From positions 73,450-137,449 of the forward strand of contig CAVWAA010000010.1 of assembly GCA_963752805.1 (NCBI GenBank): DNA of 64,000 bases, written 5' to 3'. Below, piece after piece: positions 18,740 through 34,970 of the stretch. Within the stretch, counting starts at the first letter, position 1, and each line of letters starts with the position of its first letter. Under the pieces are notes generated by a model. It ran no database searches and was not told the DNA's origin. It saw only the letters and a list, made by a program, of their open reading frames with translations. The translations under genes were made by a program, and so were the position numbers. The DNA comes from Candidatus Binataceae bacterium (GTDB taxonomy: Bacteria; Desulfobacterota; Binatia; Binatales; Binataceae).

Positions 18740-18750
18740 CAATTTTCTCC

Positions 18751-19177: not shown

Positions 19178-19240
19178 AGTGGCACAGGTTCCAGCCTGTG
19201 TTTTTCTCTTTAAAGACCACCGGCTAAAGCCGGTGCCACT
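19178..19240. repeat. Twin-hairpin element H2
   Basis: agtggcacaggttccagcctgtg..caccggctaaagccggtgccact. Confidence 0.85.
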
Positions 19241-19483: not shown

Positions 19484-19568
19484 GATTTTAATTGCTCCGC
19501 TGACGCTCCGCTGTGCGCACGTCGCAGACTCCTTTGCTCGCTCCGCGCGGGGACGCGCTCCGCTAGTG
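19484..19568. repeat. C-module copy C2 (short form)
   Basis: gattttaattgctccgctgacgctccgctgtgcgcacgtcgcagactcctttgctcgctccgcgcgg..gctccgctagtg; starts right after the gpI-like stop. Confidence 0.8.
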
Positions 19569-20435
19569 CTAATGCGCAATCGGCACTCCATTTCTTGTCA
19601 GCGGCCCATCGGCCACGTGCGGCTCGTTCTGCCCGTAGGTAATCCCCGCGTGGTAATAACGCAGGTTCCAGTACGGCACGATCGGCTTGGTATCCGCGAT
19701 CGGGAAGAACGGCGCGCTGATAAAGTCGCTTGGCGCCGGTAACAAAAAGTCATGCTGCGTGAAAATATTCGTCAGCCGGTCGCTTATCGGCGGAATCAAG
19801 GTGTCAAACAGCCGCCAGCCGAATTGCACGCTATCCAGCCAGCAGCGCGCCGGCTTCCAGAAATTGCAGATTGCAGCTACCCGCGCGGCCAGCGTGCTCA
19901 ATTCTGTGCCCGGCGGCACCGTCGATAAGTCAATCAGCACCCGGAACACCGCCCATCCTTCGTTCGACGGCCAAGTGGTGCCGCCCCAGCTGTTCTGCCC
20001 CTCCTGCACAATCGCGTTGGGATAGCCGAGCCCAGCCAGCGCGTTCTTCAGTCCTGCCACCGATCCCATCAACGAATGGAGCGCGGTGCTGAGCTGGATC
20101 AGCGTCCGATACTGCGCATAACTCTGCTGCAGAGTGGGCGTCTCCGCCCCCTCGGCCTGATACTGCAACAGGTCGAGATTAATCAGCGTGTCGATTCCGC
20201 TGACCGGGTCCCAGCCCGGAAAGGCGAGCGTGATAATCTGCGACAGCTCGGGCAGCAGCAGGGGATTCAATACGTCCCAGTCCCACGCCATAGGAAGAAC
20301 CGCAGAATCCACCAGCGACGGAATCCGGTAGACCAGGATCGGCGACAGGTCAAGATCGCCGAGCCGTTCGATCAAATCCAGATGCGCCTGCGAGCGCGCA
20401 TCATTGATCGAAGGCTGCATTTGAAGCTCAGCCAT
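19569..20435 (-). CDS. Phage tail protein I (P2 gpI-like)
   Basis: ..SQAHLDLIERLGDLDLSPILVYRIPSLVDSAVLPMAWDWDVL.. is the Tail_P2_I N-terminal pattern. It lies downstream of the gpJ-like gene as in P2 and Mu. Confidence 0.75.
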   Translation of the reverse strand: MAELQMQPSINDARSQAHLDLIERLGDLDLSPILVYRIPSLVDSAVLPMAWDWDVLNPLLLPELSQIITLAFPGWDPVSGIDTLINLDLLQYQAEGAETPTLQQSYAQYRTLIQLSTALHSLMGSVAGLKNALAGLGYPNAIVQEGQNSWGGTTWPSNEGWAVFRVLIDLSTVPPGTELSTLAARVAAICNFWKPARCWLDSVQFGWRLFDTLIPPISDRLTNIFTQHDFLLPAPSDFISAPFFPIADTKPIVPYWNLRYYHAGITYGQNEPHVADGPLTRNGVPIAH

Positions 20436-20443
20436 TATTCCTT

Positions 20444-20490
20444 ATTTGTCACCCTCGCGTGTCTGGCGCGAAGCGTCCCGCGTCTGCGCT
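20444..20490. repeat. R-family element R2 (half)
   Basis: tttgtcaccctcgcgtgtctggcgcgaagcgtcccgcgtctgcgctc; read as the C-terminus of ORF 20449..20730. Confidence 0.7.
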
Positions 20491-20730
20491 CTTCAAGGAC
20501 TCCAATCCCTTCGTGCTTATCTGCCATTTGCCGCGCGCGGAGCCGGCCTCCACCAGCCCTTTGCGTTTGAGCCCCACTAGGCATGCGGTGGTGGCGTCTT
20601 TGGTCGCCGAGCCGCAGACGCGAAACACCTCATCGACCGTGCAATCCGGATCGCCACCACTCGACTGCGACTCAGCGAGGTAGCGCAAAATCCGCGTTGC
20701 AACCCGCCGCCCGCCCCATTGGCTTGCCAT
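20449..20730 (-). CDS. Small winged-helix-like protein inserted between gpJ and gpI
   Basis: 93 aa. ..RILRYLAESQSSGGDPDCTVDEVFRVCGSATKDATTACLVGLKRKGLVEAG..WQISTKG resembles a wHTH. The last ~12 codons are read from repeat R2. Confidence 0.45.
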   Translation of the reverse strand: MASQWGGRRVATRILRYLAESQSSGGDPDCTVDEVFRVCGSATKDATTACLVGLKRKGLVEAGSARGKWQISTKGLESLKSADAGRFAPDTRG

Positions 20731-20744
20731 TACTTACACTCTGA

Positions 20745-20796
20745 AGTGGCACCGGCTTTAGCCGGTGGTCTTTCAAGAGAAGAAGCCTGTGCCACT
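20745..20796. repeat. Twin-hairpin element H3 (right arm truncated)
   Basis: agtggcaccggctttagccggtg..agcctgtgccact. Confidence 0.8.
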
Positions 20797-22166
20797 CAAG
20801 AGTGCTCCGTCCCAATCAGCTGCGTTAGTGTAATCGCCGTGCAATTCGCCCATTGACCGGCAGTCAACTGAGTATAACTCGGCTGTGTCAATTGTACTCT
20901 ATACACCCCCGGCACTGAACCTATCGCCGCGATAATCTCCTCCGGCACGATGTCTCTTTGAATCCTATTCGCTATGTTCTGCGCGAATTGACCCGCCGCG
21001 GTGTTCGCCGCCGACATCGTCACCCCCGGATCGGCATCAGAGTAAAGTGTCACCGTGCCGACGATCGTGTAATTTACTTCGGTCACCGCGAGCGCATTTA
21101 CGGTGTCGGTCAGCGGCCGAATCGCATCCGAATTGACGATCGCAGCCACCTTGCCGAGAATCACGCTCGACGCCACTCCCGACGTATTCGGCGAGACCGC
21201 CGGCTGCGTCACCGGGCCCATCAGCACGTACACGTTCACCGTCCCCGGCACCGGAGTCGTCACCAGCACGTCCACGATTCCAGGGTCGGCCGACAAGGCC
21301 CAGAAGCGGTAGGCGCCCACCGGCCCGGCCACGCTGAAGCGGTTTGGCGCCGCCTGAATCCGGTCCCGCAGATGGGCATCGGTCTCGATATTGCCTCCGC
21401 CGCTGGTGACGGTGGTATTAGTCACTGCGCTAATCAGCGTGTTCGGATTGAGCTGCACACTCACCTGGCCGACCGCGTAATTGTTTGCCGCCGCGCCGGG
21501 AGTGGTGCAGACCGCGCTTGCCACGCCGACTGTTGCTCCTGCCGGAATAATCAGATCCTGCAGCAGCGCGAACGTAAACACGCCGTCCTGGGTGCCAACC
21601 AGGGTCGCCGATGGAATATCGAAATCGAACGGCTGGGCTGCTGCCAGCGTGAATTGCAGCGTGCAGCTTGCCCCCTGCGCCGGCAGCCGCGTCACCCCCA
21701 GCAACTGCCCCAGATAGTCGAGCATGGGATAGGCCGCGAACGCCACGAGGCACTGCATGGCCGCGTACTGGATCGCATTGCGGACTAAGGATTCGCGGTA
21801 GGCATAGAGGTCGATCAGCAACCGCTCGACTTGCGCCGGATAGAGCGTGCGGCCCGCGAGAGATTGGAAGGACGCGATCATGTCATTGAGTATCAGGTTA
21901 GGGTCGAGTCCATCCGCGTCGTTGACAAAATTCGGTATGGGAAGCGAGACAATGCCGGTCGGCAGCGACACCACTTCGAGCACCGCCACGCAGGTCCAGC
22001 CGCCGGTGCCGTCGGCCGTGAACGCACCCAGCACGCTGCCCCAATTCGGTGGAATCGCCCCGGTAGAACCGGGCGTGCTGCTCCACTGCTGCACATTGGA
22101 GTTAGGGTCAATGATGACCTTCCCCGCAGCAACGGGCGCATTCGGCGACCAGGCAGGATTAGGCAT
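20796..22166 (-). CDS. Baseplate protein J (gpJ-like) with an N-terminal repeat-motif extension
   Basis: ..DAHLRDRIQAAPNRFSVAGPVGAYRFWALSADPGIVDVLV.. is the Baseplate_J core. The N-terminal ~65 aa (GKVIIDPNSNVQQWSSTPGSTGAIPPNWGSVLGAFTADGTGGWTCVA) carry the same motif as the sheath insertion. Confidence 0.85.
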   Translation of the reverse strand: MPNPAWSPNAPVAAGKVIIDPNSNVQQWSSTPGSTGAIPPNWGSVLGAFTADGTGGWTCVAVLEVVSLPTGIVSLPIPNFVNDADGLDPNLILNDMIASFQSLAGRTLYPAQVERLLIDLYAYRESLVRNAIQYAAMQCLVAFAAYPMLDYLGQLLGVTRLPAQGASCTLQFTLAAAQPFDFDIPSATLVGTQDGVFTFALLQDLIIPAGATVGVASAVCTTPGAAANNYAVGQVSVQLNPNTLISAVTNTTVTSGGGNIETDAHLRDRIQAAPNRFSVAGPVGAYRFWALSADPGIVDVLVTTPVPGTVNVYVLMGPVTQPAVSPNTSGVASSVILGKVAAIVNSDAIRPLTDTVNALAVTEVNYTIVGTVTLYSDADPGVTMSAANTAAGQFAQNIANRIQRDIVPEEIIAAIGSVPGVYRVQLTQPSYTQLTAGQWANCTAITLTQLIGTEHS

Positions 22167-22174
22167 TGCTCCGC

Positions 22175-22239
22175 AGTGGCACAGGCTTTAGCCTGTGGCC
22201 TTTCCGGGCAGCAGAACACAGGCTAAAGCCTGTGCCACT
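22175..22239. repeat. Twin-hairpin element H4
   Basis: agtggcacaggctttagcctgtg..cacaggctaaagcctgtgccact. Confidence 0.9.
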
Positions 22240-22253
22240 GAAGTCACTGCTCC

Positions 22254-23726
22254 TCATTCAAACCATCCCTCGACCGCTACGCCTGGCGTTGTCGTACCCA
22301 CTCCGCTGCCTGTATAGGCGCCGATATTCGTGTTGCCCGTCACCAGGCCGCTGAGTCCCGCGTTAATCAGAGCGCTGCCAGCGAGGAAATCGAATACCCC
22401 GGTGCTGGTGGATACGTACTGCGGATTGACCGCATTCTTGTCGTGTGCGGCGAGAGTGGTGGATCCCGCGCATCCGAGGTAACCTTGGTTGCCCTGCACT
22501 CCGCCGATATCGTTGTAATCCTCGGTGCATGACGTATAGCCGCCGTCATTCGCGATTGTCACTGTGCCATTGCCGCCTGATGCGCCGCCGTCGAAGATAT
22601 TATTGCGCAGGTCGAGCGTCGATCCGCTGTAGGTCCCCACGTTCGCCCCGTTGCAGGTGATGCCTCCGTACGATCCTCCCGCCGCGGTGCTCGCGTTGTT
22701 GTTATTCATGTAGAAAGTATTGTTGTAGACCTTATAGGCATTGGCTACCGTGTGGCCGCTGGCGACTCCACCCGGACAAATCTGCATCGCGACGTTGATG
22801 TCGTATCCGATGTTCTGCTGAAACGTGATTGTGCTGTGAGGGGAGAAGACATTCTCAGTGTAATAGCAGGGAGAGACTGAACTGCCCGAGCCGCCAGAGG
22901 TTCCCAACAATCCGAGCGAAGCGCCACCGTCGCAGATGTTGTTCGCGACCAGCGCAGGCGTCGCTGTGGCGCCGTCCCCCTTCACGTCGATATTGCCGTG
23001 GACGCCGCCCGGCCCGACGATATTGCCCTGCACCACCACGGCGCCGGTATCGTGATGCACTTCGAGCAGATTATGGCCCCCGCCCCATTTCACGATATTG
23101 TTGAGAAACTGCACGCCGTCGGCGCCCTGGCCGGAATCCTCGAAGTCCAGTTGATTGGCGTAAGTGTAGACCGTATCTGTGCCCAGACAGGCCGTGCTCG
23201 AGGTTGAGCATCCCACTCCGGTATTGTGGATATAGCTATTCGATACCGTGATGCCGGGCATGGTTCCGCCGCTGGTCTGAAACGTCACCCCCATCTGCTT
23301 GGCGTGTTCGCATTCGAGCTGGTCTATCGTGACGTAGCTGACCGTGGTGCCGATCGCGTCGACGCAGTACTGCGTCGTGTTGTTTTCGTCGAGAATCCAG
23401 CGGCCCGTTCCGAATCCTGAGCATGACGTGAACACGATCGGCGATCCCGACGATCCGGTAACGCCCGCCAGGTCCAACTGCGCGCTGGCGGTTCCGCTCC
23501 CGCCAGTCGATTGCCAGGTATCGCCGCCGCGCATGCAGACCGTCTCGCCCGCCGTAAATCCGGTCTCGACGCTACGCACCTTGTTGATCGTTGCCCAAGG
23601 AGCCGCAAGCGTTCCGGTCCCCGTGCTGTCATTGCCGGTTGAGGACGAGACGTAGACCGTGGTGAGCGCATGCGCGGGAGATGCGCACAGCATCATCGCC
23701 AGGCCGAGCAGAAGCGCACACCTAAT
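22254..23726 (-). CDS. Secreted right-handed beta-helix protein (pectate-lyase-fold-like), start codon uncertain
   Basis: ..ALLLGLAMMLCASPAHA/LTTVYVSSSTGNDSTGTGTLAAPWATINKV.. (signal peptide then a beta-helix-type N-cap) and many G/N-rich turns. At the position where the paralogous context at 32535 has ATG, this gene has ATT (23726). The track ORF start at 23858 lies in a non-coding conserved leader. Confidence 0.6.
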   Translation of the reverse strand: MRCALLLGLAMMLCASPAHALTTVYVSSSTGNDSTGTGTLAAPWATINKVRSVETGFTAGETVCMRGGDTWQSTGGSGTASAQLDLAGVTGSSGSPIVFTSCSGFGTGRWILDENNTTQYCVDAIGTTVSYVTIDQLECEHAKQMGVTFQTSGGTMPGITVSNSYIHNTGVGCSTSSTACLGTDTVYTYANQLDFEDSGQGADGVQFLNNIVKWGGGHNLLEVHHDTGAVVVQGNIVGPGGVHGNIDVKGDGATATPALVANNICDGGASLGLLGTSGGSGSSVSPCYYTENVFSPHSTITFQQNIGYDINVAMQICPGGVASGHTVANAYKVYNNTFYMNNNNASTAAGGSYGGITCNGANVGTYSGSTLDLRNNIFDGGASGGNGTVTIANDGGYTSCTEDYNDIGGVQGNQGYLGCAGSTTLAAHDKNAVNPQYVSTSTGVFDFLAGSALINAGLSGLVTGNTNIGAYTGSGVGTTTPGVAVEGWFE

Positions 23727-23929
23727 GCCTCTCCCCGACGGGAGAGGTCGGCGCGAAGCGCCGGATGAGGGACCTTCAGAAAATGTCTGATGCGCAGGGC
23801 GATTAGATAATAATACCTTTACTAATCCCCCTAGCTGATATATCCCTTCCAAAGTCACTCCGGTCTCCCTGTCGGCCCCTCACCCGCGCTGGCTTCGCCT
23901 GCGCGACCTCTCCCGTCGGGGAGAGGTAT
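23724..23929. mobile_element. G-type TIR element G2 (carries conserved leader copy 1)
   Basis: Left aatgcctctccccgacgggagaggtcggcgcgaagcgccggatgagggacc; right cctcacccgcgctggcttcgcctgcgcgacctctcccgtcggggagaggtatt. Fills the gap between the gpW stop and the beta-helix gene. Confidence 0.8.
23775..23848 (-). promoter_or_regulatory. Conserved ~75-nt leader, copy 1 (upstream of the beta-helix signal-peptide gene)
   Basis: ttcagaaaatgtctgatgcgcagggcgattagataataatacctttactaatccccctagctgatatatccctt. Near-identical to 32579-32653. Lies inside G-type element G2. Confidence 0.5.
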
Positions 23930-24391
23930 TTAGGCCAAACTCCTCGGCACCGTGATCGTCAATTGTTGATTACCCACTCCGCTCACGTCGATCTTCAATT
24001 GCCAGACTATCGTGATAAGCAAATTGGCCCGCGTTCCCCCGACCAGGTTGACGACGACGCTCAACACCCGGACTCTCGGCTCCCACTTCGTTATCCCCTC
24101 GACGATCTCCCGGACCAGCGCCGGACGCGCGACCGTAATCGGCGCATCGATCAATTGCCACAGATCGCAGGCGAACGTCGGCCGTAGCGGGTCGCTCCCT
24201 TTCGGCGTCGAGAGGATAATTCCGATGCACTGGTTGATATCCGCTATCCCTTGCACCACGAGTCCAAGTCCCGCGCCAGGCAGTATGGCGGAATTAATTC
24301 CGCCCTCCCCGGCACCGACGACCGAAGTGTCGAGGCACAGCGACCAATCCGCCGAGGTGATATCGTCAAGTGTAATCGCCCCCGCACTCAT
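23930..24391 (-). CDS. Baseplate protein W (gp25/GPW family) carrying an in-frame palindrome-element insertion
   Basis: ..INQCIGIILSTPKGSDPLRPTFACDLWQLIDAPITVARPALVREIVEGITKWEPRVRV.. is the GPW_gp25 pattern. Residues GEGGINSAILPG are encoded by GGCGGAATTAATTCCGCC (24287-24304). Confidence 0.8.
   Translation of the reverse strand: MSAGAITLDDITSADWSLCLDTSVVGAGEGGINSAILPGAGLGLVVQGIADINQCIGIILSTPKGSDPLRPTFACDLWQLIDAPITVARPALVREIVEGITKWEPRVRVLSVVVNLVGGTRANLLITIVWQLKIDVSGVGNQQLTITVPRSLA
24287..24304. repeat. Palindrome element P1 (variant GGCGGAATTAATTCCGCC), in frame inside gpW
   Basis: Encodes GGINSA within GEGGINSAILPG of ORF 23930..24391. Confidence 0.6.
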
Positions 24392-24405
24392 TTTTAAGAT
24401 TCCTA

Positions 24406-24470
24406 AGTGGCACAGGCTTCAGCCTGTGTTCTTTCTCTTTCAAAGACCGCCGGCTAAAGCCGGGGCCACC
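24406..24470. repeat. Twin-hairpin element H5
   Basis: agtggcacaggcttcagcctgtg..cgccggctaaagccggggccac. Confidence 0.85.
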
Positions 24471-24472
24471 TT

Positions 24473-24781
24473 TCAATCCGCCGCTACCACATCAAAGATA
24501 AACTCACTGCTGTATACCGGCCCTACCGGCCCCGGAAATATCACCGCAACCATTCCATGCCATCGCCCAATCGCGAACTCTCCCGCGATGACTGAATATT
24601 CCCATTCAATAGTCACTGCATTCCAGACGAGCGCCCGCGTGTAGAGAATGCCGTCCTGGTCACGCAGGCAGAGGGTCGCCATGGCGCCGGTGAAGGTGTT
24701 GGCGTTGCCACTCTGCTGTAACAGCGGAAATCCCAGCACTTTGCCGTTATCGGCGGTCGTTATGGTGTAGTACCCCACCAT
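24473..24781 (-). CDS. Hypothetical protein (about 102 aa)
   Basis: ATG 24781 (MVGYYTITTADNGK..) follows CACTAGGAAAAGCAGGC from twin-hairpin copy H6. No family recognised. Confidence 0.4.
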   Translation of the reverse strand: MVGYYTITTADNGKVLGFPLLQQSGNANTFTGAMATLCLRDQDGILYTRALVWNAVTIEWEYSVIAGEFAIGRWHGMVAVIFPGPVGPVYSSEFIFDVVAAD

Positions 24782-24794
24782 GCCTGCTTTTCCT

Positions 24795-24857
24795 AGTGGC
24801 ACAGGCTTTAGCCTGTGTTCTTCTCTTTAACGACCACCGGCTAAAGCCGGTGCCACT
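24795..24857. repeat. Twin-hairpin element H6
   Basis: agtggcacaggctttagcctgtg..caccggctaaagccggtgccact. Confidence 0.9.
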
Positions 24858-24865
24858 TCAGAGTG

Positions 24866-25826
24866 CTAGCCCAGTCTCGCGTCGAACGTAATCACCTGGC
24901 CAAGCCGCGCATCGAATCGAATCGCCAGGTCGAGCATCGCTGCTGTGAATATCACTCGCGGCGCGCCCGGCGACGGAACCGGCGGCGCCAATGACGCCCC
25001 GAGCCCCAGCTCAATCTGCCCGAGCTGCGAAATCTGAATGCCTAATTGGCCGGTAAAAGTCATCTCAATCGTCGCAGACGGTGCGTAAATATCCCGGTTC
25101 GCCAGCGGCAGGCGTATGCTGAGCGACTCCGCTGACATTCACATTCCCGGCATTTCCCCCTGCGTTTCCAGCGGAGCCTCCAACCGCCTGAGTCGCGGTC
25201 GCCGATCCGGCGATCCCATTAGTCCCAGTTTCATTTATTCGTATTGAGATACCGCTGCCGAGATTGCCGGCAACGGATGTCCCGCCAGCTGGGGCGCCTG
25301 GAGCGCTCGTGCATGCACCATTATTCGTTCCGCCGCCAATGCCGTGATGCTCGGTTAGCAGCACGCCATTAATTGTGATGGTGCTGTCTCCACCGTTCCC
25401 CCCCGCGACTGGAGTGGTCGGGTCGTTAGTTCCTGCGGCGCCAGCAGCGCCCAGTGCGTAGGTAAGAGTACCGGAGGGGTTTTTGATCTCCACTTCCGAG
25501 CAGGCCCCGGCTGAGCCGCTAGCCGCCGTGCATGCCGTTGTCGCTCCAGTGAGCTGCCCTCCTCCACCTCCCCCACCTGCGCAAATTCGGAGCATCAGGT
25601 TGATGCAAGTCGTTGGAACCGTATAGGTTGTTCCGGTCGTTAAATATTGCGTATCGGGCTCGATACGTGGCACGTAGGCCGCATAACTCCAATAGCCCAC
25701 CGCGATAGCGATCGCAGCCGAGAGGACTGATCTCCACGTTTTTGAACGCACCTCCAATAGGCCCTTGCGGGCCGTTCGGCAGACTCGTTTGCTCGGCTCC
25801 GCTTCGCTCCGCCTGGTGGTGTTCAC
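24866..25826 (-). pseudogene. Membrane-anchored glycine-rich fibre-like protein (frameshift near 25130)
   Basis: ..SVLSAAIAIAVGYWSYAAYV (TM) ..TTGTTYTVPTTCINLMLRICAGGGGGGG.. is the T.T.P / poly-G pattern of glycine-rich prophage fibre-region proteins. It continues in another frame as track ORF 24866..25138. The 5' ~25 codons derive from repeat C3. Confidence 0.4.
25748..25818. repeat. C-module copy C3 (truncated)
   Basis: cgcacctccaataggcccttgcgggccgttcggcagactcgtttgctcggctccgcttcgctccgcctggtg. Confidence 0.75.
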
Positions 25827-25910
25827 TGCTCACTTGGGAGATGGATTCGGCCATCCTGGCTGCGTTCGCGATTTCGCCGGGCTCGGAGCAGGGCTCGGAG
25901 TCGCGGCAGG

Positions 25911-25940
25911 TGAGGACGGAATTAATTCCGTCCTACTCAT
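25911..25940. repeat. Palindrome element P2
   Basis: tgaggacggaattaattccgtcctactcat; core GACGGAATTAATTCCGTC at 25915-25932. Confidence 0.85.
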
Positions 25941-26200
25941 TTGCTGATGCGACCCATTGTTGACCGCATCGCTGCTGCCGATCTGTTTCTGCAAGTCAGC
26001 GAGCTGCTTGCCGAGTTCCTGGATCTGCTTCTTCAGCTCGTCGCGCTGGATCACCAGGGCTGCGTCCTGCTGCTCATACTGGTCGCGCTCGTCATGCAGC
26101 ATGCTCGCGTATTGAGTCTCGCCCTGGAGATTCTTCTTGCATTGCTCTCCCTGCGATAAAGCCAATGCTGCCGCGCCGACTCCCGCTCGTGCGATGCCAC

Positions 26201-26229
26201 AGGAGGACGGAATTAATTCCGTCATACCG
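26201..26229. repeat. Palindrome element P3
   Basis: aggaggacggaattaattccgtcataccg; core 26206-26223. Confidence 0.9.
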
Positions 26230-26253
26230 ACGGCACAGAGAACGACAAGGCCA

Positions 26254-26282
26254 AGGAGGACGGAATTAATTCCGTCATACCC
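26254..26282. repeat. Palindrome element P4
   Basis: aggaggacggaattaattccgtcatacccc; core 26259-26276; 53 nt from P3. Confidence 0.9.
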
Positions 26283-26510
26283 CCTCTTAATCTCCCCCTG
26301 GTCAGGGGGAGATATTGGAGCCACAGCATCCTCGTAGGGGTCGCCCGGATCGAATGCCTTCGCCGCCTCTGGGTCACACTCGCATTTGCACCACGTCTGC
26401 AGTCCGCAATCCCAGTGTTGCCCGCGTTCACAAGCAGAACACATCTCCATGTGCTTCCTCGTAAAACCTCCCCCCCGACCAGGGGGAGGGTAGGTGAAGG
26501 TTTTCTCTGA

Positions 26511-27248: not shown

Positions 27249-27280
27249 GGACTCCTACTCTCCTTCTGTTATTCTCTCGC

Positions 27281-27309
27281 GGTATGACGGAATTAATTCC
27301 GTCCTCCTC
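27281..27309. repeat. Palindrome element P5
   Basis: ggtatgacggaattaattccgtcctcctc; core 27286-27303. The TGA stop of ORF 27308..27907 overlaps its edge. Confidence 0.9.
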
Positions 27310-27907
27310 ATGCAACGACCCACTGGCCCGGACTGTCGTAGACAAACCACACACTCTCATACGCGATATCGACGTTATAGTTCGCATTGGCCCCGTTGAT
27401 CGTATCGACCCCGTGTGGAGTGACTATCACGTGCTGGGCGAAGCCGTCCGACGCCCGCATTATCACGATCGGCTCAATTCGCGTTCCATCGGCTGGCGGC
27501 AGCAACACAATCGTGGGCGCGCTCGCTCCCGCCGCCACTACCAGGAAGTTGTCGTCGGCATCGACGGTATAAGGTGAATTGGCGAAGGTCACGGAGACTG
27601 CCGGCCCCAGCGTCAACAAGGCCGCGATATCCTGCTGGAACTGCCGCAGAGCGCCGGCTGTGAGTACAGCGGTGACAGTTGCCCCGCTGCGGTGAGCACT
27701 GGCGCTAGTCCCTTCGGCGCCGCGCGTGAGGGAGGAGAACGAATTACCCGACACCGCGCCCGCAATGATTATCTCGCTGTCAATCAGCACTCGAAATGTC
27801 CCGCTAGCAGGGAACGCCGCCGCACTGGTCACCGTTAGAAACGCATCTCCGGCGAGCATCTCCGCCGAGAGCGTCGTTTGAGCATTATTGGCGAACTGCT
27901 CACTCAT
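27308..27907 (-). CDS. Tail-fibre-like protein (no signal peptide) with the same C-terminal knob
   Basis: MSEQFANNAQTTLSAEMLAGDAFLTVTSAAAFPASGTFRVLIDSEIIIAGAVSGNSFSSLTRGAEGTSASAHRSGA (common prophage fibre N-domain) ..NSPYTVDADDNFLVVAAGASAPTIVLLPPADGTRIEPIVIMRASDGFAQHVIVTPHGVDTINGANANYNVDIAYESVWFVYDSPGQWVVA. Confidence 0.55.
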   Translation of the reverse strand: MSEQFANNAQTTLSAEMLAGDAFLTVTSAAAFPASGTFRVLIDSEIIIAGAVSGNSFSSLTRGAEGTSASAHRSGATVTAVLTAGALRQFQQDIAALLTLGPAVSVTFANSPYTVDADDNFLVVAAGASAPTIVLLPPADGTRIEPIVIMRASDGFAQHVIVTPHGVDTINGANANYNVDIAYESVWFVYDSPGQWVVA

Positions 27908-27910
27908 GCT

Positions 27911-27940
27911 GAGGAGGACGGAATTAATTCCGTCATACCC
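27911..27940. repeat. Palindrome element P6
   Basis: gaggaggacggaattaattccgtcataccc; core 27917-27934; 4 nt upstream of the ATG at 27907. Confidence 0.9.
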
Positions 27941-27947
27941 TTTTGTT

Positions 27948-28116
27948 TGTCACCCCGAGCGAAGTCGAGGGGTCGACGCGCAGCGATTCAGTGCTCGATG
28001 CACGCTTGCGCGCCGATCGGTTTGAACCAGCAGGCTGCCTGTTCAAATTGTTTGGCGACCAACCTGGCGGCATTGCCGCGCTCCGCGTTGTTTCCTCGGC
28101 TGCGCTCGGAATGACA
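27948..28116. mobile_element. MITE-like element M2
   Basis: tgtcaccccgagcgaagtcgaggggtcgacgcgcagcgattcagtgctcgatg..ggtttgaaccagcaggctgcctgttcaaattg..cctcggctgcgctcggaatgaca. Confidence 0.85.
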
Positions 28117-28162
28117 AAACCAAAGCCGGAAGGTAGGGTGGGGGTCGTCGTCTGCATCTTTC

Positions 28163-28735
28163 TTATCGCGCTCGCAGGGTCATCAACTGATTAGGCACTC
28201 CCGTATTTCCCTCACTCGGATCGCTATGCGTGTGAGTGTTATACGTGTCAATAATCCCGTTCACCGAATCGGTGTGCTCGTCGGTTTTGAATGTGACATC
28301 CCCATTCGGCGCGCTCAGATTGATGTTGCCCCCATTCGCGGTGATATTCGCGCTACCGCCATTGACCGTGATGTTAATCGTCCCGTTGCTCGGGACGTTG
28401 ATCGCGAGCGTGTGACTACTGCGGTCATACTCAAACGTCGCGGTGTCCTTCATGGTCACGTGCCACTTATCGGCGGTCATTGAGGGCGGCGTCGTATCGG
28501 CTTGCGAATAGATCGCGCCCAGCACTGCGCCGTCTTCGTCATGCGCGTCCATCAGGCACACCACCTGCTCGCCGATATCAGGAATCCAATACGCCTTGTC
28601 GTTCTGCGACTTCGGCACCACGATCGGCAGCCACCATGAAATGAGCTGATTGCGGTCGGGAAATGTCACTCTCACGCGGCAATTCTGCACGTCCTGCGCC
28701 TGCACCAAGCCAACTCGAAACTGCCGTCGTGGCAT
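28163..28735 (-). CDS. Baseplate assembly / spike protein V (P2 gpV, Mu gp45-like)
   Basis: ..FRVGLVQAQDVQNCRVRVTFPDRNQLISWWLPIVVPKSQNDKAYWIPDIGEQVVCLMDAHDEDGAVLGAIYS.. followed by the ..TVNGGSANITANGGNINLSAPNGDVTF..THTHSDP spike tip. Confidence 0.85.
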   Translation of the reverse strand: MPRRQFRVGLVQAQDVQNCRVRVTFPDRNQLISWWLPIVVPKSQNDKAYWIPDIGEQVVCLMDAHDEDGAVLGAIYSQADTTPPSMTADKWHVTMKDTATFEYDRSSHTLAINVPSNGTINITVNGGSANITANGGNINLSAPNGDVTFKTDEHTDSVNGIIDTYNTHTHSDPSEGNTGVPNQLMTLRAR

Positions 28736-28753
28736 GTTCTGGTTCGTCGTGCA

Positions 28754-30470
28754 TCACAACCCTGTCTGCTTCCACGCCGCGCCATTGCAGTAGATTTCGC
28801 AGTGCGTGGTGCCAGCACTGGTCGCGGTCGTGCCGTTTGCGCAGGCTGCGGTGCTGTTCGTCTGCGTGCCTCTCGCGCCTTCCATCGCCGCGTTGCACGT
28901 TCCAAAATTCGCCAACAGCTGGGGCTTGACGATAAGCGGTTCATCATAGGTGGTTGGGTTGCCGGTGTTGGAATGGTTGAAGTAGTGATAATCGAATGCG
29001 CCCGCGCTGGCCAGCGTGCTGCCAGAGTCAACATTACTCAACGGAGTAGTGCATACCCCACCCTGGAACCGGCCTTGTATGTGTACTGCGTCTACGTCGG
29101 TGCCGCCGTTGATTACTATGCAGTTGGTTGGCTCCGTCGAAAACCCGCCGCCATGCTGAATATACCAGGCGGGCATGTTGATGTTGTAGCCGCCCGTAAT
29201 GCTTAGCGGGAGGGTCGTGGCATCGACCTTGCTCAGTTCCTCGTACATATTCGGCATGTAGATGCCGTCTGGAAACAGGCTGCCGATCGGCTCGATGCTC
29301 ACGTATTTGACACCAGTCGCGTTAATGTCCACGATGGCGCACGTGTTGCACACAAAGTCAGTCCACCTGCCGCGATGACCAGTCCGCGAGTGCTGGCGCC
29401 GGTACCGCCTCCGGTTATCCATATGCCGTTAGCATAAATTAGGTTGCCGCTTCCGCCGCCCTGGCCATCAACGAGCATGGCGGTGGAGTTATTAGCTTCG
29501 CTGATGTCAAGTGTGCGAGATATGCCAGGCCGGAGACGTTATCAACCCACAGCGACGCTTCGGTGATGGTCGCGCTAGCGCTCGGGCTTAGGATACAGCC
29601 TTCCACGTCCATGTGGGTATTGTTGGCCGTGATGTTCGCGCTGCTTGCTACTATCGCGGTGCCGTTGAACGTGCTCGCAGCGTTAATTTTGCCGCCGCCA
29701 TTACGCGCCCAGGTGTGACAAATCAGGCGGCCGGAATCAGTCAGCGAAATGCAAGGTCCGGTGCCGCTTGTGTCAGTGCAATTTATCGACGCGCCGTCCA
29801 GTTCCAGAGCTTGTGGATAGCCGGTCGATTGCGCATTCGGAGAGCCGACCGTCAGAACTGATGGCACCGTGTAGGAGACGCCGGGATCGCCATGCACCAC
29901 ACATGCCGCCGTTGGCGCGGCGCCTCCGGGGCATTGGCTGAATGCGGTTACTATGCCCGTGGTGAGAAGACCTGCATGAATTACATGAGGGACGGGATTC
30001 GCATGCTGGCTGGCGGATGCATAATACATCTCATTGCCGGTTTCAGTCGGGCTAGTGATGGCTGCGCTGCCCGCTGTCGCCCCATTCGGGCCAATGAAAT
30101 TAACATTGTATGTTCCCGCGGCAGCGTTGGTCGGACTTACGATGGTGCCTAGATACTCACCTCCGCTCGTTGGAATCACCGCCCCCGCGTCAACGCAGTC
30201 TCCAGCGGTAGTAGGATCGACTTGAGCGTAATCACCCGCGGTAATGCCGCCGCTAAACACGCATGGAGCCACGCCCATGATCTGAATGGTCGCCGTTCCT
30301 GAAGTACCGCAACCTGCGACGCACGGCCCTTGCACTCCCGCCGTCGCTCCCGCTGGTGCAATTTGTGCCTGGTTGGAGCTGGTTACGATAGCGAGTATGT
30401 TGAGCGTCGTGCCGGTGCTGGAGTTCGCGAGAGAGAGCGGTATTCCTGCGGTGCGCGCCACGGCGAGCAT
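28754..30470 (-). pseudogene. Large G/T/A-rich tailspike-like (beta-helix-like) protein, frameshifted near 29430
   Basis: Track ORFs 29439..30470 and 28754..29422 join through a third frame (own translation ..VDGQGGGSGNLIYANGIWITGGGTGAS..). Repetitive turns such as INAASTFNGTAIVASSANITANNTHMDVEGC suggest a beta-helix. The 5' boundary with the preceding gene (30383-30650) is unclear. Confidence 0.35.
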
Positions 30471-30548
30471 GCCGGAGCAATGTCGCTCGCATTCGCGGTC
30501 AACACCTTATCCCAGAGGGTGGCCGCACGTTCCTGCACCGAGACTGTC

Positions 30549-32535
30549 TCATTCGTTCCCAGAGCGATATTGCTGGTGGAACTTAATCGAATCACCAGCG
30601 AACGGATGGACATTGCAGAGCTGGGTGGACGAGATGTTCTTGACTTCATAGCGCCGCTTCAGCGTCTGATTTCCCGCTTGCGGCAGGTTGAACTGGCAGG
30701 CCCCCGACGAGCAGTTGCAATCGACCATCTGGTCGCTGCTGAGTGGGCTATAGGGAGAACCCGCATCGACGAAAGTAGTGATGCCAACCCCTGGCGCGGT
30801 GTATGGCACAGTGCTGCTACAGTGCGTTATCCAGGATGAATCGCCGGCGTCCCAGGTATAGGCCACATCCATTTTATTCGTTGGCGAGACCGAGCGCCGG
30901 GCAACTGGAACCCTGAATGCCGCCTGTGGCGAACGTGGTGAATGTCGCTGTGTGTGCGGCGTCCTGCACAATATGGAAACCGATCTCGCTGCCGGTCAGA
31001 CATCCGGAGGTCGGCAGGGTATAGGTAACGCTCGCCCCGGACAGGGAGCCGATGTACTCATGCCGGATCGGCCAGGAACCGCCCGCCGCCGAAGTGGAGA
31101 GACAGGTAACGGCAGTGTTGACGGTCGGCAGCGTATCGTTCTGCACCTGCTCCAGCGGGGAGAAGGAACCTGGCGAGCCCAGCGCCGGCAGAGCCGCCTT
31201 TCCCGCCGTGCCGCCGCCGAGCGCCGTCCAGAAGGGAGACGCATTGATGTCAGCGCCGCTGACATCCGCCGCGCCGATAGCCTGTGCCGCCGCCTGCCCC
31301 GCCGCGGCCTGGCCGGTGCAGCCCTGCGCGACCGTGCAAGGCACCATCTGCGTCGCGAGCGGACTAATCGTTGCCCCGCCAATCCTGGCAATCGTCGGAC
31401 TCGCGGGGGTGCCGCCGAGATCCCCCGCGACCTGGGCATAAGCGCTCACAGCCGGGTGGACGCCGCAACTGGCGAGTGTGAGCACTGCCGTCGCGGCGTT
31501 CCATTTTGCGTAATAGTACACTGTGGTATTTGCGGCCGGCGCGCCACAGGCATTCGCCCGCGCGGTAGTTGCCGCGCCACTCACTGCCGTGACGTTGGCG
31601 TCGGACAGGCCGGGTTGAGTCGATGCCCACGTTACTCCAGTGTTGGCCGCAAATAGAATGTCGGACGGTGCAGTTGAGCCAATAGCTACTTCGATATCGA
31701 CGGTCTGCCCGTCGGTGAGCACTGTGCTGGCTGGAGCTGTCAGGGTGAGCGCCGTCGAGGTTGTCCCGTTGGCGACGCGATTGATGTCAGCACAATTAGC
31801 AGTGGTGCAAAGCGTCTGAAGAGTGGCCGCACCTGATGTGACAACAGGCGTGTGGGTAAAGCCGGGAGTGCCGCTCGATGGGGTCGGCGGCACGGTACCC
31901 GCGCTGCAATCAGATACCCATGACGAGCGTGTCGCATTGTATTTATATCGCCACGTTGCTTGATTGCCGACGGTAGTGCCAAGCGCGGGACAGGTAGCGC
32001 CCTCGATTCCGCCGCTCGCGGAGGTGGTGAATGTCGCGGTGTGGGCGGCGTCCTGTATCGCGGTTACGTTTATGCTCGCGTTGTCGATGCATCCCGAGGA
32101 CGGGAGTGTGTATGTGACGTTGGCGCCGGACAGGGCCCCGCTGTACCAGTGAGTATCTGGATAATTGCCGCTCGGATTGATGCAAGCCAAAGTCGCACTG
32201 GCAGTTGGCAACGGACTATTTGTCGTTTGTTCGAGGGCTGCCCACGGCCCCGGTGAGCCTGCCGCGGGCATAGCGGTAACGCCGTTGCAACCTTGCGCGA
32301 CCGTGCAAGGCACCGTCTGCGTCGCGAGCGGACCAATCGTCGCGCCGCCAATCTTGGAGACCGTCGGACTGCTGTTGGTGCCGCCGATATCCCCACCGAT
32401 CTGTACTCCGCCGCTGACTGGACCGCCACTGCCGCTGATTCCGCCACCTCCGCCGATCGATTGGGCAAAGGCTGCCGACGCGAGCAGCAAGAGAGCCGCG
32501 ACAATAATGACACACTCTGCGGCACAAGGCCGCAT
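30549..32535 (-). pseudogene. Secreted protein with two ~230-aa internal repeats and a knob-like C-terminus (frameshift near 30880)
   Basis: MRPCAAECVIIVAALLLLASAAFA/QS (signal peptide). The unit IGGATIGPLATQTVPCTVAQGC..TYTLPSSGC..VTAIQDAAHTATFTTSASGGIEGATCPALG occurs twice. After ..SSCPALGLAN the sequence continues in another frame (track ORF 30549..30971: KMDVAYTWDAGDSSWITHCS..GSPYSPLSSDQMV..). Confidence 0.5.
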
Positions 32536-32656
32536 CTCCCCCTGTCGAGGAGGACGGGCGAAGCGCCGGGTGAGGGACCTTCAGACAATGTCTGCTGCGC
32601 GGGGTGATTAGCTGATAACACCTTTACTAATCCCCCTAGCTGATATATCCCTTGCA
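32532..32656. mobile_element. G-type element G3 (left TIR plus leader copy 2; right TIR replaced by P7)
   Basis: catctccccctgtcgaggaggacgggcgaagcgccgggtgagggacc followed by the leader. The ATG at 32535 lies at its edge. Confidence 0.7.
32579..32653 (-). promoter_or_regulatory. Conserved ~75-nt leader, copy 2 (upstream of the 553-aa signal-peptide gene)
   Basis: ttcagacaatgtctgctgcgcggggtgattagctgataacacctttactaatccccctagctgatatatccctt. Contains the 13-bp palindrome CAGACAATGTCTG (32582-32594), whose core GACAATGTC equals that of the operator-like site at 50641. Confidence 0.5.
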
Positions 32657-32674
32657 AATTAATTCCGTCATACC
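32657..32674. repeat. Palindrome element P7 (half copy fused to G3)
   Basis: aattaattccgtcatacc; the left half is replaced by the conserved leader. Confidence 0.7.
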
Positions 32675-32727
32675 GACGCGCTCCTTTGCGCGGCGCAGAG
32701 AGGCTCCTTCGTTTCTTCATCTGCTAG

Positions 32728-33009
32728 TTAGAAATCACAGAATGAATAGGTCGTGCCGCTCGCGCTGATCGCGGCGACGTCGCCCCCCGGCACCATCTTC
32801 GGTCCCGCCGCGGTCAGCACCCAGCTCGCCCCCGGCGCCAGATAGATATCGCTCGACGTTGCGGTGTTACTTGATCCGATCGCCACGTTCATCGGATTCG
32901 TCGTGCCGGTGTTCTGGATCAGCATGTAATGGCGCCCCGTCAGGCCGGCGATATCGTTGGCCCCCACAATCGCGGTCGAAGATGAGGTGACCGCGCCGTG
33001 CAGGTGCAT
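32728..33009 (-). CDS. Hypothetical small beta-rich protein (93 aa)
   Basis: Intact ORF MHLHGAVTSSSTAIVGANDIAGLTGRHYMLIQNTGTTNPMNVAIGSS..; no family recognised. Flanked by twin-hairpin H7 and the G3/P7 repeats. Confidence 0.45.
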   Translation of the reverse strand: MHLHGAVTSSSTAIVGANDIAGLTGRHYMLIQNTGTTNPMNVAIGSSNTATSSDIYLAPGASWVLTAAGPKMVPGGDVAAISASGTTYSFCDF

Positions 33010-33037
33010 ACCGCGTATGCCCGCGAAATCAGCAGCA

Positions 33038-33114
33038 GAACACAGGCTAAAGCCTGTGCCACCAGGAAAGGAATTGTCTGCCTCTTAAGTGGCACCGGCT
33101 TTAGCCGGTGTTCT
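33038..33114. repeat. Twin-hairpin element H7 (arms in swapped order)
   Basis: gaacacaggctaaagcctgtgccac..agtggcaccggctttagccggtgttc. Confidence 0.8.
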
Positions 33115-33517
33115 TCAAGGAGTTTTCTGCGCAAAGGTAATCACCCCCACCGCAGTCGGCGTGGTCCCGCCGAGCTTAGGCACAGTTGATCTCCGCCTGG
33201 CGCGGTAAAACAAATTGAGTGAAGCGACCACGTCGCGCGTGGCAGCGCTCATCGCACCCGTCAGCGCGGTTGTCCCGGTATCGCAATCGGTCGTGGTTTT
33301 GGTCCCATAATCAAATTCGAGCGTCGGCGAAGTGCCGCCGAGGTCTATAGCTGTAGCCGCAGACCTGGATTGGTTCGCCGGTCTCGGGGAGAACGATCTG
33401 ATGCTCGCCTGCTCCGCTGGTGGTGATCGAAATCGCCGCGCTCTCCTTGGGCACGTTGGAGGATTGACACCAATCAGCCCCGGTCATCTGGGCGCTGGCG
33501 GATACCGCAATCAGCAT
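33115..33517 (-). pseudogene. Hypothetical secreted protein, frameshifted near 33330
   Basis: ..LLYAMLIAVSASAQ/MTGADWCQSSNVPKE.. (signal-peptide-like). After ..QVCGYSY the sequence continues in another frame (own translation DLGGTSPTLEFDYGTKTTTDCDTGTTALTG..VITFAQKTP, stop 33115-33117). The start codon is unclear. Confidence 0.3.
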
Positions 33518-33560
33518 TGCGTAGAGCAGAACTGCCAGACTAAAGAGGTCGAATCTTAAT

Positions 33561-33769
33561 CAGCGGAGCCGAGGAATCAACGCGAAACGGTAGCGGCGAT
33601 ATCGCCAGGCGGGTTGCCAAACAATTTGAACTGGCAGCCTTCTGGTTCAAACGGATCGGTGCGGAGCGTGCAATCGAGCACTGAATCGCTTCGCGTTGAC
33701 CTCTCGGCTGTGCTCGGGGTGACATCAGAAGAGCCAAAACGTTGATCTCGGCTGCGCTCGGAATGACAG
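33561..33769. mobile_element. MITE-like element M3 (opposite orientation, one terminus truncated) plus an adjacent solo terminus
   Basis: cagcggagccgaggaatcaacgcgaaacgg..caatttgaactggcagccttctggttcaaac..gaatcgcttcgcgttgacctctcggctgtgctcggggtgaca, then gttgatctcggctgcgctcggaatgacaga (33741-33769). Confidence 0.75.
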
Positions 33770-33771
33770 AA

Positions 33772-34754
33772 TCATACCTTTCGCACCTCCACTTCGGTCG
33801 TATAGCCTGTGCTGCGCTCCAGCCGGTGCTTGCTTGATTCGATGTGATACTTGCCGTCGAATGCCGAAGCCCTGTAGCGCGTTGACGCCGGCGGCCAGCA
33901 GAATCGTCCCCTCCGTCTCGATTCGGCCGGTCACCTGGTCCTTGTTCGCATCGTGCAGCGCGCTGTCCGCCTTGAGCTGTGCATGCTGCGGCGTTTCGCA
34001 GCGCGTGACGATATGCAGATCGTCGCCAGTAGGGACGGAATCAACGCCTCTCGCCTCCGACTGCGCGCGATCAATTGCTTCTTCGGCGGATTCTGATAGG
34101 CCACCGTCGCACTCCGGTAGATTTGCTGGGTGCGGGTCTTAAATTCGAAGCTCTTGGCGATCCGAAGGAAGGGCGGAATTGGTTCTGCTAAAGAGTCAGC
34201 ACAGGCGCCGCCTGCTCCAGCGGCGTCCGCGCATAGAAGATGAGCTGCGTCCCCCGAACCGAGAAATCATAATTGTGTGCAACCGCAATGCGCCGCAGGA
34301 AATACAGATCGGTCTCATTGTGCTGGGTCAGCCGCGACCAGGTAACGTTGATGTTGGCGGGGGCGCCGGTTACCGTCATTCGATGCCGGCTGGCGACCGT
34401 GCCCGCGACCTGGAGCAGGGTCTGCGATTCATATGCCGCGCTCCTGGGGGTGCGAATCGACGGCGTGATGCCCGCGGCGATGCACTTCAAATGAAACGTA
34501 TCGGGCGGCCCCTTCAGCTCCAGTTCGTCCACCTGAAAATCACCGCAGTTGAGCAGCTCCTCGCCGTCGTAACCGATCAGCAGAGTGACGATATCGCCGC
34601 ACACCGGGAACCACGGTCCCTGCCATCGGCGGTCGCGGTCCTCCAGCGTCACTGCGACTTCGTCACTGACGTGGGCTATTTTGTCGACGTAGCTGATCTC
34701 AGTCACCATCCCGGAAACGTCCGCCGTGATATTCACTCCCGAGTAAGTCAGCAC
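33772..34754 (-). pseudogene. Tail protein D (P2 gpD / Mu gpP-like), frameshifted
   Basis: VLTYSGVNITADVSGMVTEISYVDKIAHVSDEVAVTLEDRDRRWQGPWFPVCGDIVTLLIGY..CGDFQVDELELKGPPDTFHLKCIAAG..QHNETDLYFLRRIAVAHNYDFSV is the Phage_GPD pattern. The C-terminal part is scattered over other frames (..GRIETEGTILLAAGVNALQGFG then FDGKYHIESSKHRLERSTGYTTEVEVRKV, stop 33772-33774). Confidence 0.75.
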
Positions 34755-34868
34755 CCATCGCGGATGCCGGACTGGAAATGCAAACGGTCAGCCGCCAATC
34801 AGCGCAGCACCCTCACCCTTCCCTCTCCCGCAAAAGAGCAGTGAGGCCTCGACCGCGCGCCCGTTTTA

Positions 34869-34910
34869 GACCCTCGCGCGTGGCTGCCGCGTAATGCCCC
34901 GCGTTTTTGC
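34869..34910. repeat. R-family element R3 (fragment)
   Basis: gaccctcgcgcgtggctgccgcgtaatgccccgcgtttttgc. Confidence 0.6.
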
Positions 34911-34970
34911 CGGCCTTATCGTTTCCACGGTGGCAAATCCTCTGTTTCCTGCTTACCGCTGGATTCACTA

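Follow-up and report, generated by a model that had tools for sequence, protein, structure and literature searches.

The baseplate proteins D, V, W, J, and I of P2-type phages have counterparts in gp44–48 of Mu-type phages, and in the related phage BcepMu the genes for sheath, tube, chaperones, tape measure, U, X, D, V, W, J, I, and H follow each other contiguously. Here we describe a prophage of this kind from an uncultured soil bacterium of the family Binataceae, which lies within a stretch of 64,000 nucleotides (the window; G000:C10:73450-137449, from a metagenome-assembled genome (MAG), G000, of 3.38 Mb that is 70% complete). The window contains a cluster of phage genes on the minus strand, from ~13.7 to 52 kb, whose closest relatives in the searched collection are BcepMu-like phages (J 39–44% identical). 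The core proteins and their relative order match those of these phages, and a Mu-type portal, protease and capsid are found as well, but this element differs from BcepMu, Mu, and P2 in that accessory genes are present between every pair of core baseplate genes, no tape measure or chaperone genes lie between the tube gene and U, the portal gene is located beyond the fibre genes, and several core genes are broken. The junctions between its genes are also heavily loaded with short repeats. We consider it likely that the split of the baseplate core is the native mosaic order of the sub-lineage to which this element belongs, and that the hairpin-forming repeats are later colonisers of a decaying prophage operon.

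The hub, spike, gp25-like, gp47, and gp48 homologues were identified by PHROG profiles and tblastn searches with BcepMu proteins, and they are all present on the minus strand in the order D, V, W, J, I:

33775..34787, minus strand, gpD (Mu gp44-like hub), a pseudogene in three frames; phrog_52 fragment at 34188-34787 (2e-49), BcepMu tblastn match at 33778-34772
28163..28735, minus strand, gpV (Mu gp45-like baseplate spike), intact; phrog_9992 (E 3.6e-17), BcepMu gp48 tblastn match at 28406-28720
23930..24391, minus strand, gpW (gp25-like baseplate wedge), intact; phrog_43 (E 2.5e-28), BcepMu tblastn match at 23996-24370
20796..22166, minus strand, gpJ (Mu gp47-like baseplate wedge), intact; phrog_6 (E 1e-76), BcepMu tblastn match at 20826-21950
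19569..20435, minus strand, gpI (Mu gp48-like baseplate protein), intact; weak PHROG tail matches (2.5e-5), BcepMu gp51 tblastn match at 19821-20435

The positions of these genes, and the gaps of ~5.0 kb between D and V, 3.8 kb between V and W, 1.76 kb between W and J, and 0.36 kb between J and I, agree with an initial annotation of this DNA; the core genes are thus not adjacent, nor are they joined by overlapping or nearly overlapping stop and start codons. For D, the annotation was correct in placing a hub homologue at this position, but the gene is not intact: in tblastn searches with the intact D proteins of G002 (373 aa) and L100 (335 aa) its pieces were found in frames -3, -2, and -1, with at least two frameshifts. 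In the closest relatives of the element, which were reached through homologues of its beta-helix protein, PF04965 and PF04717 are found on the L099 orthologues of gpW and gpV, respectively, and core orthologues of L099/L100 also carry PF26078/9.

The defective BcepMu/Mu-type prophage has long been resident at a single chromosomal locus in one genus of the Binataceae. The host genes on its right flank (window 54703-57006) are located ~10 kb past the sheath gene in G002:C11 and adjoin a sheath-like open reading frame (ORF) in G003:C339, and the amidohydrolase on its left flank is 99% identical in L099, where it again adjoins the portal gene. The J genes of G000 and G002, with 456 codons each and no indel between them, show a synonymous divergence (dS) of 0.94 and a dN/dS of 0.19, and this purifying selection at such divergence indicates that the element is old and has been under selection for most of its history.

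The order of genes and the presence of repeats can be separated by comparison with the closest relatives, L099/L100 (J 94%, I 89%, and host flank 99% identical to those in the window) and L098 (~90% DNA identity across J). A common gene order is directly observed in the window, L099/L100, and L098, consisting of a gene for 987 aa (followed in L100 by a 702-aa beta-helix gene), V, genes for 199, 245, 145, 330, and 102 aa, W, the beta-helix gene, J, a variable J/I region, I, fibres, portal, and host genes. The gene set of L100 is found on at least five contigs. The repeat content differs: most junctions in L099 overlap or are a few bases long, and L099 contains ~1.5 copies of the repeat designated H and one of the repeat P, L098 contains 1–2 H and 5 P with some G and R repeats, and the window contains 15 H, 12 P, and four M copies and others. 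At the following junctions, named by the genes on their two sides, filled and empty sites can be compared base by base:

24473/W: empty in L099 (GATTAG-C-ATG), a G/P-like insert in L098, an H doublet in the window
27308/26511: a G fragment in L099, empty in L098 (15 nt), a P unit in the window
V/27308: empty in L099 (overlap), P and G in L098, M and P in the window
24866/24473: 1.5 H in L099, empty in L098 (TAA-ATG), a full H doublet in the window

As the gene order is constant and the repeats are variable, the repeats were inserted later, repeatedly and independently. In the window, the whole gap from the beta-helix gene to J is taken up exactly by an inverted H doublet (22167..22253; hairpin of -54 kcal/mol); no H is present in this gap in L099, and an R-type repeat occupies it in L098. 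In L099 the start of the J gene (~40 nt) is present a second time in the same gap (11482-11664), as a small local duplication.

A broader comparison, in which the concatenated window proteins were searched in 12 genomes of the family, led to 14 elements whose synteny could be examined, the window included. The D-V-W-J-I genes are contiguous in eight of these (G028, G018:C20, G023, G015, G029, G007, G022, and G031), which indicates that the split is derived. Inserts of 1–9 kb between D and V are present in six (G000, G002, G006, G017, G018:C29, and G020); the V/W junction is occupied in G020 and the window, and the W/J and J/I junctions only in the genus of the window. Homologous accessory genes have also changed their places. 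In G002 the beta-helix gene adjoins D, the glycine-rich domain is encoded between D and V, an ORF for a lipoprotein-like protein of 102 aa is in V/W, and a peptidase-like gene of 240 aa is in U/X; the G000 counterparts are found between W and J, between V and W, downstream of I, and in the neck region, respectively. The proposal that the split is derived and variable is therefore supported to the extent that the core is contiguous in eight of 14 elements and cargo moves, but the interleaved order is native to the window's sub-lineage. Cargo and repeats are also found apart from each other: G002, where the locus consists of tightly packed genes with no repeat families, and G018:C29 have cargo without repeats, and G007 has repeats but a contiguous core with no cargo. 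The repeats of G007 belong to a different doublet family (CCCCTTCCC-N7-GGGAAGGGG), found at X/D, D/V, W/J, J/I and beyond, and G020 contains a third hairpin family.

At least seven repeat families, including Q as well as R, C, and those named above, are present in the window at counts far above chance (0–0.01 expected in shuffled sequences), and they are thus as real as had been claimed initially. The sequence GRCGGAATTAATTCCGYC occurs 13 times, CACMGGCTTTAGCCKGTG at ~18 sites, and two further motifs 6–7 times each; copies of 40–180 nt with 80–98% identity occur in both orientations, dozens of them within 37 kb, and the repeated sequence in the whole element amounts to ~5.5 kb. A search of Rfam returned only a chance microRNA-like match on an H hairpin.

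The nature of H can be judged by comparison with the repetitive extragenic palindromic (REP) sequences, their hairpin-forming doublets (REPINs), and the REP-associated tyrosine transposases (RAYTs), as described by Bertels and Rainey (2011; PMC3116915). H has the sequence GTGG-CACMGGC-TTTA-GCCKGTG, with GTAG variants in G072, and thus consists of a GT[AG]G head and a 7-bp stem; it usually forms inverted doublets, ten of which, 65–87 nt long, have folding energies of -30 to -54 kcal/mol. Among 65 genomes of the family, dispersed copies of H are present in 10 (49 copies in G072, 31 in G022, others in G025 and G007), and none were found outside the family. In G022 an H-flanked ORF (L040:5513-6160) matches the Y1_Tnp transposase family (PF01797; 31.5 bits versus a cut-off of 23), and this gene, which is frameshifted near its end, sits among ordinary metabolic genes. 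The six H copies outside the prophage in G000 flank three remnants of the C-terminus of the RAYT (E 5e-14). Dispersed doublets, an H-flanked Y1_Tnp gene and its remnants identify H, under the definition of PMC3116915, as a REP/REPIN family that is presumably mobilised by a RAYT (an IS200-like Y1 transposase), although the cognate RAYT appears to be dead in the G000 MAG. H shares with the described systems the short GTGG/GTAG-headed palindrome, the hairpin-forming inverted doublets, the location outside genes and the H-flanked Y1 transposase in a related genome. It differs from them in that 15 of its 21 copies in G000 are inside one prophage operon instead of being scattered over the extragenic space, so that genome-wide dispersal is not seen in this genome. 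The possibility that H-rich loci in other genomes are themselves prophages was considered and rejected, as they consist of ordinary metabolic neighbourhoods and one RAYT locus.

Two further observations were made on H-like sequences elsewhere. Three short inserts of ~140–235 nt with inverted H REPs on their two sides are present at G000:C13:72675-72931, C18:6286-6540, and C27:24704-24866; those on C13 and C18 match the last ~35 codons of the RAYT gene, and the inserts resemble a miniature inverted-repeat transposable element (MITE) derived from a decayed REPtron. In G025, H-like REPs at C8:337524-337617 and 301949-302006 are arrayed in tandem with a period of 36 nt.

Most of the ten H doublets, when read in the sense of the genes, have the same layout of a stop codon, REP, spacer, REP, CCACTNAGGA, 6–10 nt and ATG. 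The stop is often the TGA of TCTGAAGTGG, and otherwise a TAG in the loop or a TAA in the spacer. By this layout, an insertion terminates the upstream reading frame and makes a ribosome-binding site available to the gene that follows. The other families are of different kinds. G, with 32 copies elsewhere in G000, is a host-wide REP-like family. M, with four copies of 180 nt, ~40-nt inverted ends, folding energies of -85 to -98 kcal/mol and no coding capacity, looks like a MITE-like element, and single copies are present in a few other genomes only. P is a 28-nt palindrome, AGGAGG-ACGGAATTAATTCCGT-CCTCCT or a variant, which is confined to the window's sub-lineage of elements; among 100 relatives no copies were detected except three with one mismatch. 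The absence of host-wide copies of P and the single copies of M elsewhere led us to reject the explanation that all of the repeats are host REPs, and neither P nor M has the host-wide population seen for REP/REPIN-RAYT systems.

The copy of the element in the window is, to judge from its assembled sequence, decaying. Its pseudogenes are directly visible by comparison with intact genes of L100, against which the o100 remnant lies in three frames and o987 is frameshifted once. The genes for sheath, tube, V, W, J, and I are intact, but no homologue of a tape measure was found in the window or the MAG, nor in L100, and no chaperone genes are present between tube and U in the window; with U, X, and D frameshifted as well, the gene set for a functional contractile tail is not present. 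The main features outside the baseplate core are:

13724..50346, minus strand, whole defective prophage, reading protease, truncated capsid, neck, sheath, tube, U/X/D, baseplate and fibres, and portal remnant
48865-50346, minus strand, protease/scaffold gene of the head module
47202-47828, minus strand, capsid gene fragment, matching only profile positions 2-127 of 303
37863-40034, minus strand, sheath gene, intact
37199-37720, minus strand, tube gene, intact
34989..36452, minus strand, upstream decayed stretch with X, the o44/o100 remnants and U
35773-36452, minus strand, U, frameshifted once near 36378 and interrupted by an in-frame stop at 36166-36168
35146-35242 and 35660-35757, inverted Q-repeat pair interrupting the o44/o100 remnants
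34989-35138, minus strand, X, truncated
13724-15288, minus strand, Mu-type portal remnant, adjoining a host amidohydrolase gene beyond the fibre genes

In L099 the portal gene (18891-20351; 486 aa, PF06074) is intact. Neither the window nor L099 showed a terminase gene. The slot between tube and U (window 36606-37198; L100 6390-7140) contains only a conserved ORF of 127 aa, which is 95% identical in L100 and 57% identical in G002, and a slot with this ORF alone is found in three genomes, in which the remaining tail genes are intact. A Trp/Gly/Thr-rich domain of ~60 aa is repeated in the sheath (39327-39914) and is also present at the N-terminus of gpJ (21972-22166), whose N-terminal domain of 65 aa recurs in the sheath, and in part of a fibre ORF (18159-18318). 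The J proteins of most other genera do not have this domain, and query coverage for them begins near residue 68.

The accessory genes at the baseplate junctions, and the repeats among them, are arranged as follows:

20436..20795, minus strand, J/I junction with a winged helix-turn-helix (wHTH)-like ORF of 93 aa (20449-20730) that has an R-type repeat at 20447-20494 on one side and an H doublet with part deleted (20737-20795) on the other
22254..23858, minus strand, beta-helix accessory gene region; ORF 22254-23747 is polysaccharide lyase/hydrolase-like with an N-terminal hydrophobic leader
24392..24865, minus strand, region of a 109-aa accessory ORF (24473-24802) with H REPINs on both sides (24392-24472, 24788-24865)
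24866..28162, minus strand, V/W accessory block, with genes and G, P, and M repeats
~24900-25054, minus strand, small conserved ORF of the V/W block
25065-25746 (ORF to 25826), minus strand, glycine-rich-domain ORF (Gly_rich_2, PF21722)
25747-25818, G-type repeat of the V/W block
25830-26450, minus strand, coiled-coil ORF of the V/W block with two internal P palindromes
26511-27248, minus strand, signal-peptide fibre-like ORF of the V/W block
27268-27311 and 27910-27940, P units of the V/W block
27308-27907, minus strand, short tail-fibre-like ORF with a tail-fibre-type N-terminus
27946-28126, M-type element of 180 nt in the V/W block
28754..33724, minus strand, D/V accessory block with ORFs and H and M copies
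28754-29422 and 29439-30470, minus strand, ORFs of the D/V block, absent from L099/L100
30585-32535, minus strand, internally duplicated signal-peptide gene with a frameshift near 30880, corresponding to the first ~660 residues of the 987-aa gene of L100
32536-32667, minus strand, D/V copy of a shared 136-nt leader
32728-33009, minus strand, 93-aa ORF, 79–91% identical in relatives
33032-33122, H copies of the D/V block
33311-33517, minus strand, small ORF of the D/V block
33562-33724, M-type element of the D/V block in inverted orientation

The product of ORF 22254-23747 is modelled by AlphaFold2 as a right-handed beta-helix (pLDDT 84.5, pTM 0.87), and in Foldseek searches this model matched GH136 enzymes, Pel9A and PL6 lyases with E values of 6e-9 to 1e-4, tailspikes being lower in the list. 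It has a predicted N-terminal hydrophobic helix in place of a virion anchor, and its homologues (n = 36) are mostly from Binataceae. A 136-nt leader (23727-23862) lies upstream of this gene, as does a C-type repeat (23868-23934). This leader, listed as repeat family D18, is present twice (23727-23862 and 32532-32667; 82% identical) ahead of the unrelated signal-peptide genes for the beta-helix protein and 30874; it folds stably at -44 to -58 kcal/mol, and no match to it was found in Rfam. The P palindromes inside ORF 25830-26450 (26206-26276) read MTELIPSS, and this ORF may be two shorter ones or disrupted. In L099 the J/I region is 875 nt long and has ORFs of 208 and 84 aa, with the wHTH part being 77% identical, and gpI adjoins J in all relatives. 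A homologue of the 109-aa ORF is found between D and V in G018:C20.

The initial description of the cargo as fibre-like, beta-helix, glycine-rich and signal-peptide proteins is borne out for the glycine-rich ORF at 25065, the beta-helix model at 22254, the tail-fibre-type N-terminus at 27308, and hydrophobic leaders recognised by eye at the N-termini of the products of 22254, 26511, and 30874; for the rest, Pfam and PDB sequence searches of most cargo ORFs gave nothing informative. Paralogy among these proteins, which was also proposed, holds in part, as 26511 and 27308 share a C-terminal domain with 38% identity. However, what had been taken as an ORF at 27933-28157 is merely the M-type inverted-repeat element. 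The cargo genes, whose GC content at third codon positions is similar to that of the core genes, can be considered not to be canonical baseplate parts, because eight relatives are without them; the chance that they would prove to be such parts, which the initial annotation itself had raised, is thus not borne out.

Such genes recall the morons, the mosaic accessory genes that are reported to occur in phage late operons from the work of Hendrix and colleagues. Like them, the cargo consists of extra genes dispensable for virion assembly, variable in content and in some cases with exported products, that lie between conserved late genes. Unlike them, it is present at every baseplate junction, and many of its products look like receptor-binding proteins. 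A scan for promoter and terminator consensus sequences was not above chance, with no autonomous promoter-terminator pairs detected around the inserts. One terminator-like hairpin, recognised by eye, follows gene 26511 at 26451-26510.

On the reading that we favour, two independent processes would have shaped this operon. Tail-fibre-like, glycine-rich and secreted beta-helix genes and small ORFs would have become interleaved with the baseplate core by ordinary phage mosaicism, through illegitimate or homologous exchange at gene borders with D/V as the preferred site, and the resulting order would be the native order of the window's sub-lineage. Independently of this, small mobile hairpin families would have inserted later and repeatedly between stop and start codons along the element. 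Only intercistronic insertions would be expected to survive, since others would break a gene, and H may be tolerated because of its own stop codons and Shine-Dalgarno-like end. The window's copy could be so heavily loaded because selection is relaxed on an operon that is dying and mostly silent, with local transposition perhaps contributing.

The concentration of the repeats is the chief point that weighs against this reading. Of the copies in the 3.4-Mb MAG, 15 of 21 H, all 12 P and all M are located in 1% of its length. Such concentration in a single operon is not predicted by random scatter of REPs, and neutral accumulation alone is insufficient to account for it. In the orthologous operons of G007 and G020, different hairpin families are likewise concentrated (12 of 17 genomic copies within 7 kb, and 8 of 8 copies inside the element, respectively), and the baseplate genes D to I of G007, which are the only ones compared, have no internal stop codons. 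For P, neither a mobilising enzyme nor a host-wide population was identified. The MAG is 70% complete, so copies elsewhere may be missing from these counts, and its frameshifts are those of the assembled sequence. The concentration thus hints at targeting or function, and relaxed selection on silent operons, local or single-stranded DNA (ssDNA)-directed transposition, and a co-opted function all remain as candidate causes. That the late operon of this prophage lineage attracts or benefits from small hairpin elements, as three families in three genera, each concentrated almost wholly where a stop codon meets the next start, could suggest, is a tentative idea to which we give a minor but real chance.

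A more specific form of function, in which the hairpin doublets are intercistronic modules (stop, strong hairpin, and Shine-Dalgarno-like end) repeatedly recruited by the phage lineage for translational coupling, for setting protein ratios through the stability or processing of mRNA, or for binding of a regulator at the P palindrome, seems to us rather unlikely. The layout of most of the ten H doublets fits with it, as do the pairing that the Shine-Dalgarno-like end would form with the 5' arm in the long hairpin, the palindromic AGGAGG and CCTCCT ends of P, and the different element-restricted families at the same junctions in G007 and G020. Cluster K mycobacteriophages also provide a precedent in their start-associated sequences, which are phage-restricted repeats just upstream of start codons, often in inverted pairs (PMC3203893), although these have other sequences and are from another host phylum, and the elements in the window are inserted or absent between close relatives, one of them with a transposase. 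Against such modules, close relatives have tight, repeat-free junctions, and it is the copy of the element with broken genes that is loaded most heavily. In other genomes H is a dispersed REP of the usual kind, accompanied by a RAYT, and the promoter and terminator scan gave no signal above chance. The uniform orientation of the doublets would also be expected from strand-specific transposition of ssDNA, because all genes are on one strand.

Once in place, the repeats could also have served as substrates for homologous recombination, giving rise to some private deletions and rearrangements, as at J/I and around U-X-D, but not to the interleaved order. The similar copies described above, numerous and in both orientations within a short distance, would allow for this; the J/I region, flanked by H and R, measures 360 nt as compared with 875 nt in L099, and the inverted Q pair brackets the o100 remnant. 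However, no breakpoint could be mapped to a repeat copy, and the ends of the L099 and L098 alignments are not consistently inside repeats, which makes this explanation improbable as well, to about the same degree as that of functional modules.

The initial annotation had proposed that the repeats are the points of recombination or insertion at which cargo cassettes are swapped. Such an architecture would be like that of an integron or of the PeSL motifs, promoter/terminator elements by which modules are shuffled in phages of the T4 type and which mark the ends of indels between close relatives (PMC2839356; PMC4122927). In its favour, short repeated stem-loops lie between genes in a plastic region of a myovirus, as PeSLs do, the cargo differs among related elements with homologous genes at different junctions in G000 and G002, and H doublets flank several single genes such as J and the 24473 ORF on both sides. 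In contrast to the PeSL case, the relatives of the window keep their gene order and the repeats vary, no promoter consensus is seen, and at least one family is a host REP. The same order is present in L099/L100 and L098 with almost no repeats, as the annotation itself had stated would speak against its proposal. The only cargo replacement seen among close relatives, where the 29439 and 28754 ORFs of the window stand in place of the C-terminus of o987 and the 702-aa gene of L100, has repeat-free borders on both sides, so that the expected coincidence of breakpoints with repeats was not found. Many junctions of the cargo blocks are indeed filled, but the border between cargo and V (28736-28753, 18 nt) carries no repeat, nor do 29423-29438 and 30471-30584. 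Of the 45 junctions of the element, 32 are occupied by repeats, and in the head and neck module the figure is 12 of 14; being bounded by repeats thus does not set the cargo apart, core head genes being flanked by repeats as often. An integron-like array was rejected, as there is no integrase among the scanned ORFs and no attC-like consensus or core (GTTRRRY), and the repeats flank core structural genes too. Together with the separate occurrence of cargo and repeats in G002, G018:C29, and G007, this makes cassette exchange through the repeats very improbable.

That the interleaving or the repeats result from mis-assembly or binning of metagenomes is hardly credible, since, although the MAG is incomplete, separate assemblies made from different samples (L099/L100 from JGI, L101 and L098 from ENA) show the same order, and the contig of 224 kb has host genes flanking the element on both sides.

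The reading of a native mosaic order with later hairpin colonisation separates the mosaicism of accessory genes from the arrival of the repeats, and it prevents the operon from being falsely annotated as a cassette array. The filled and empty REPIN-like sites, resolved to the base between translationally coupled genes, provide rare material on the choice of targets by such elements and on their survival. The comparison also documents prophage tail modules from the uncultured phylum Binatota in which gene order is unusually plastic. An example of this plasticity is the tape measure, which in G002 lies between J and I (G002:C7:49169-51184, L014 4920-6938; 672 aa, PhageMin_Tail, PF10145, 65 bits) together with a chaperone-like ORF of 126 aa (L014 7199-7579); in G003 and G020 it follows the tube gene, which is the canonical slot (29–31% identical), and in other genomes it is absent. 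If the concentration of hairpins reflects targeting or function, it would link the biology of REPINs and MITEs with the expression of phage late genes. Should the late operon of this lineage attract small hairpin elements, prophage late operons might be both targets of choice and reservoirs for elements of the REPIN/MITE type, for example through exposure of ssDNA during phage replication; should it benefit from them, the hairpins would have been co-opted as intercistronic expression modules.

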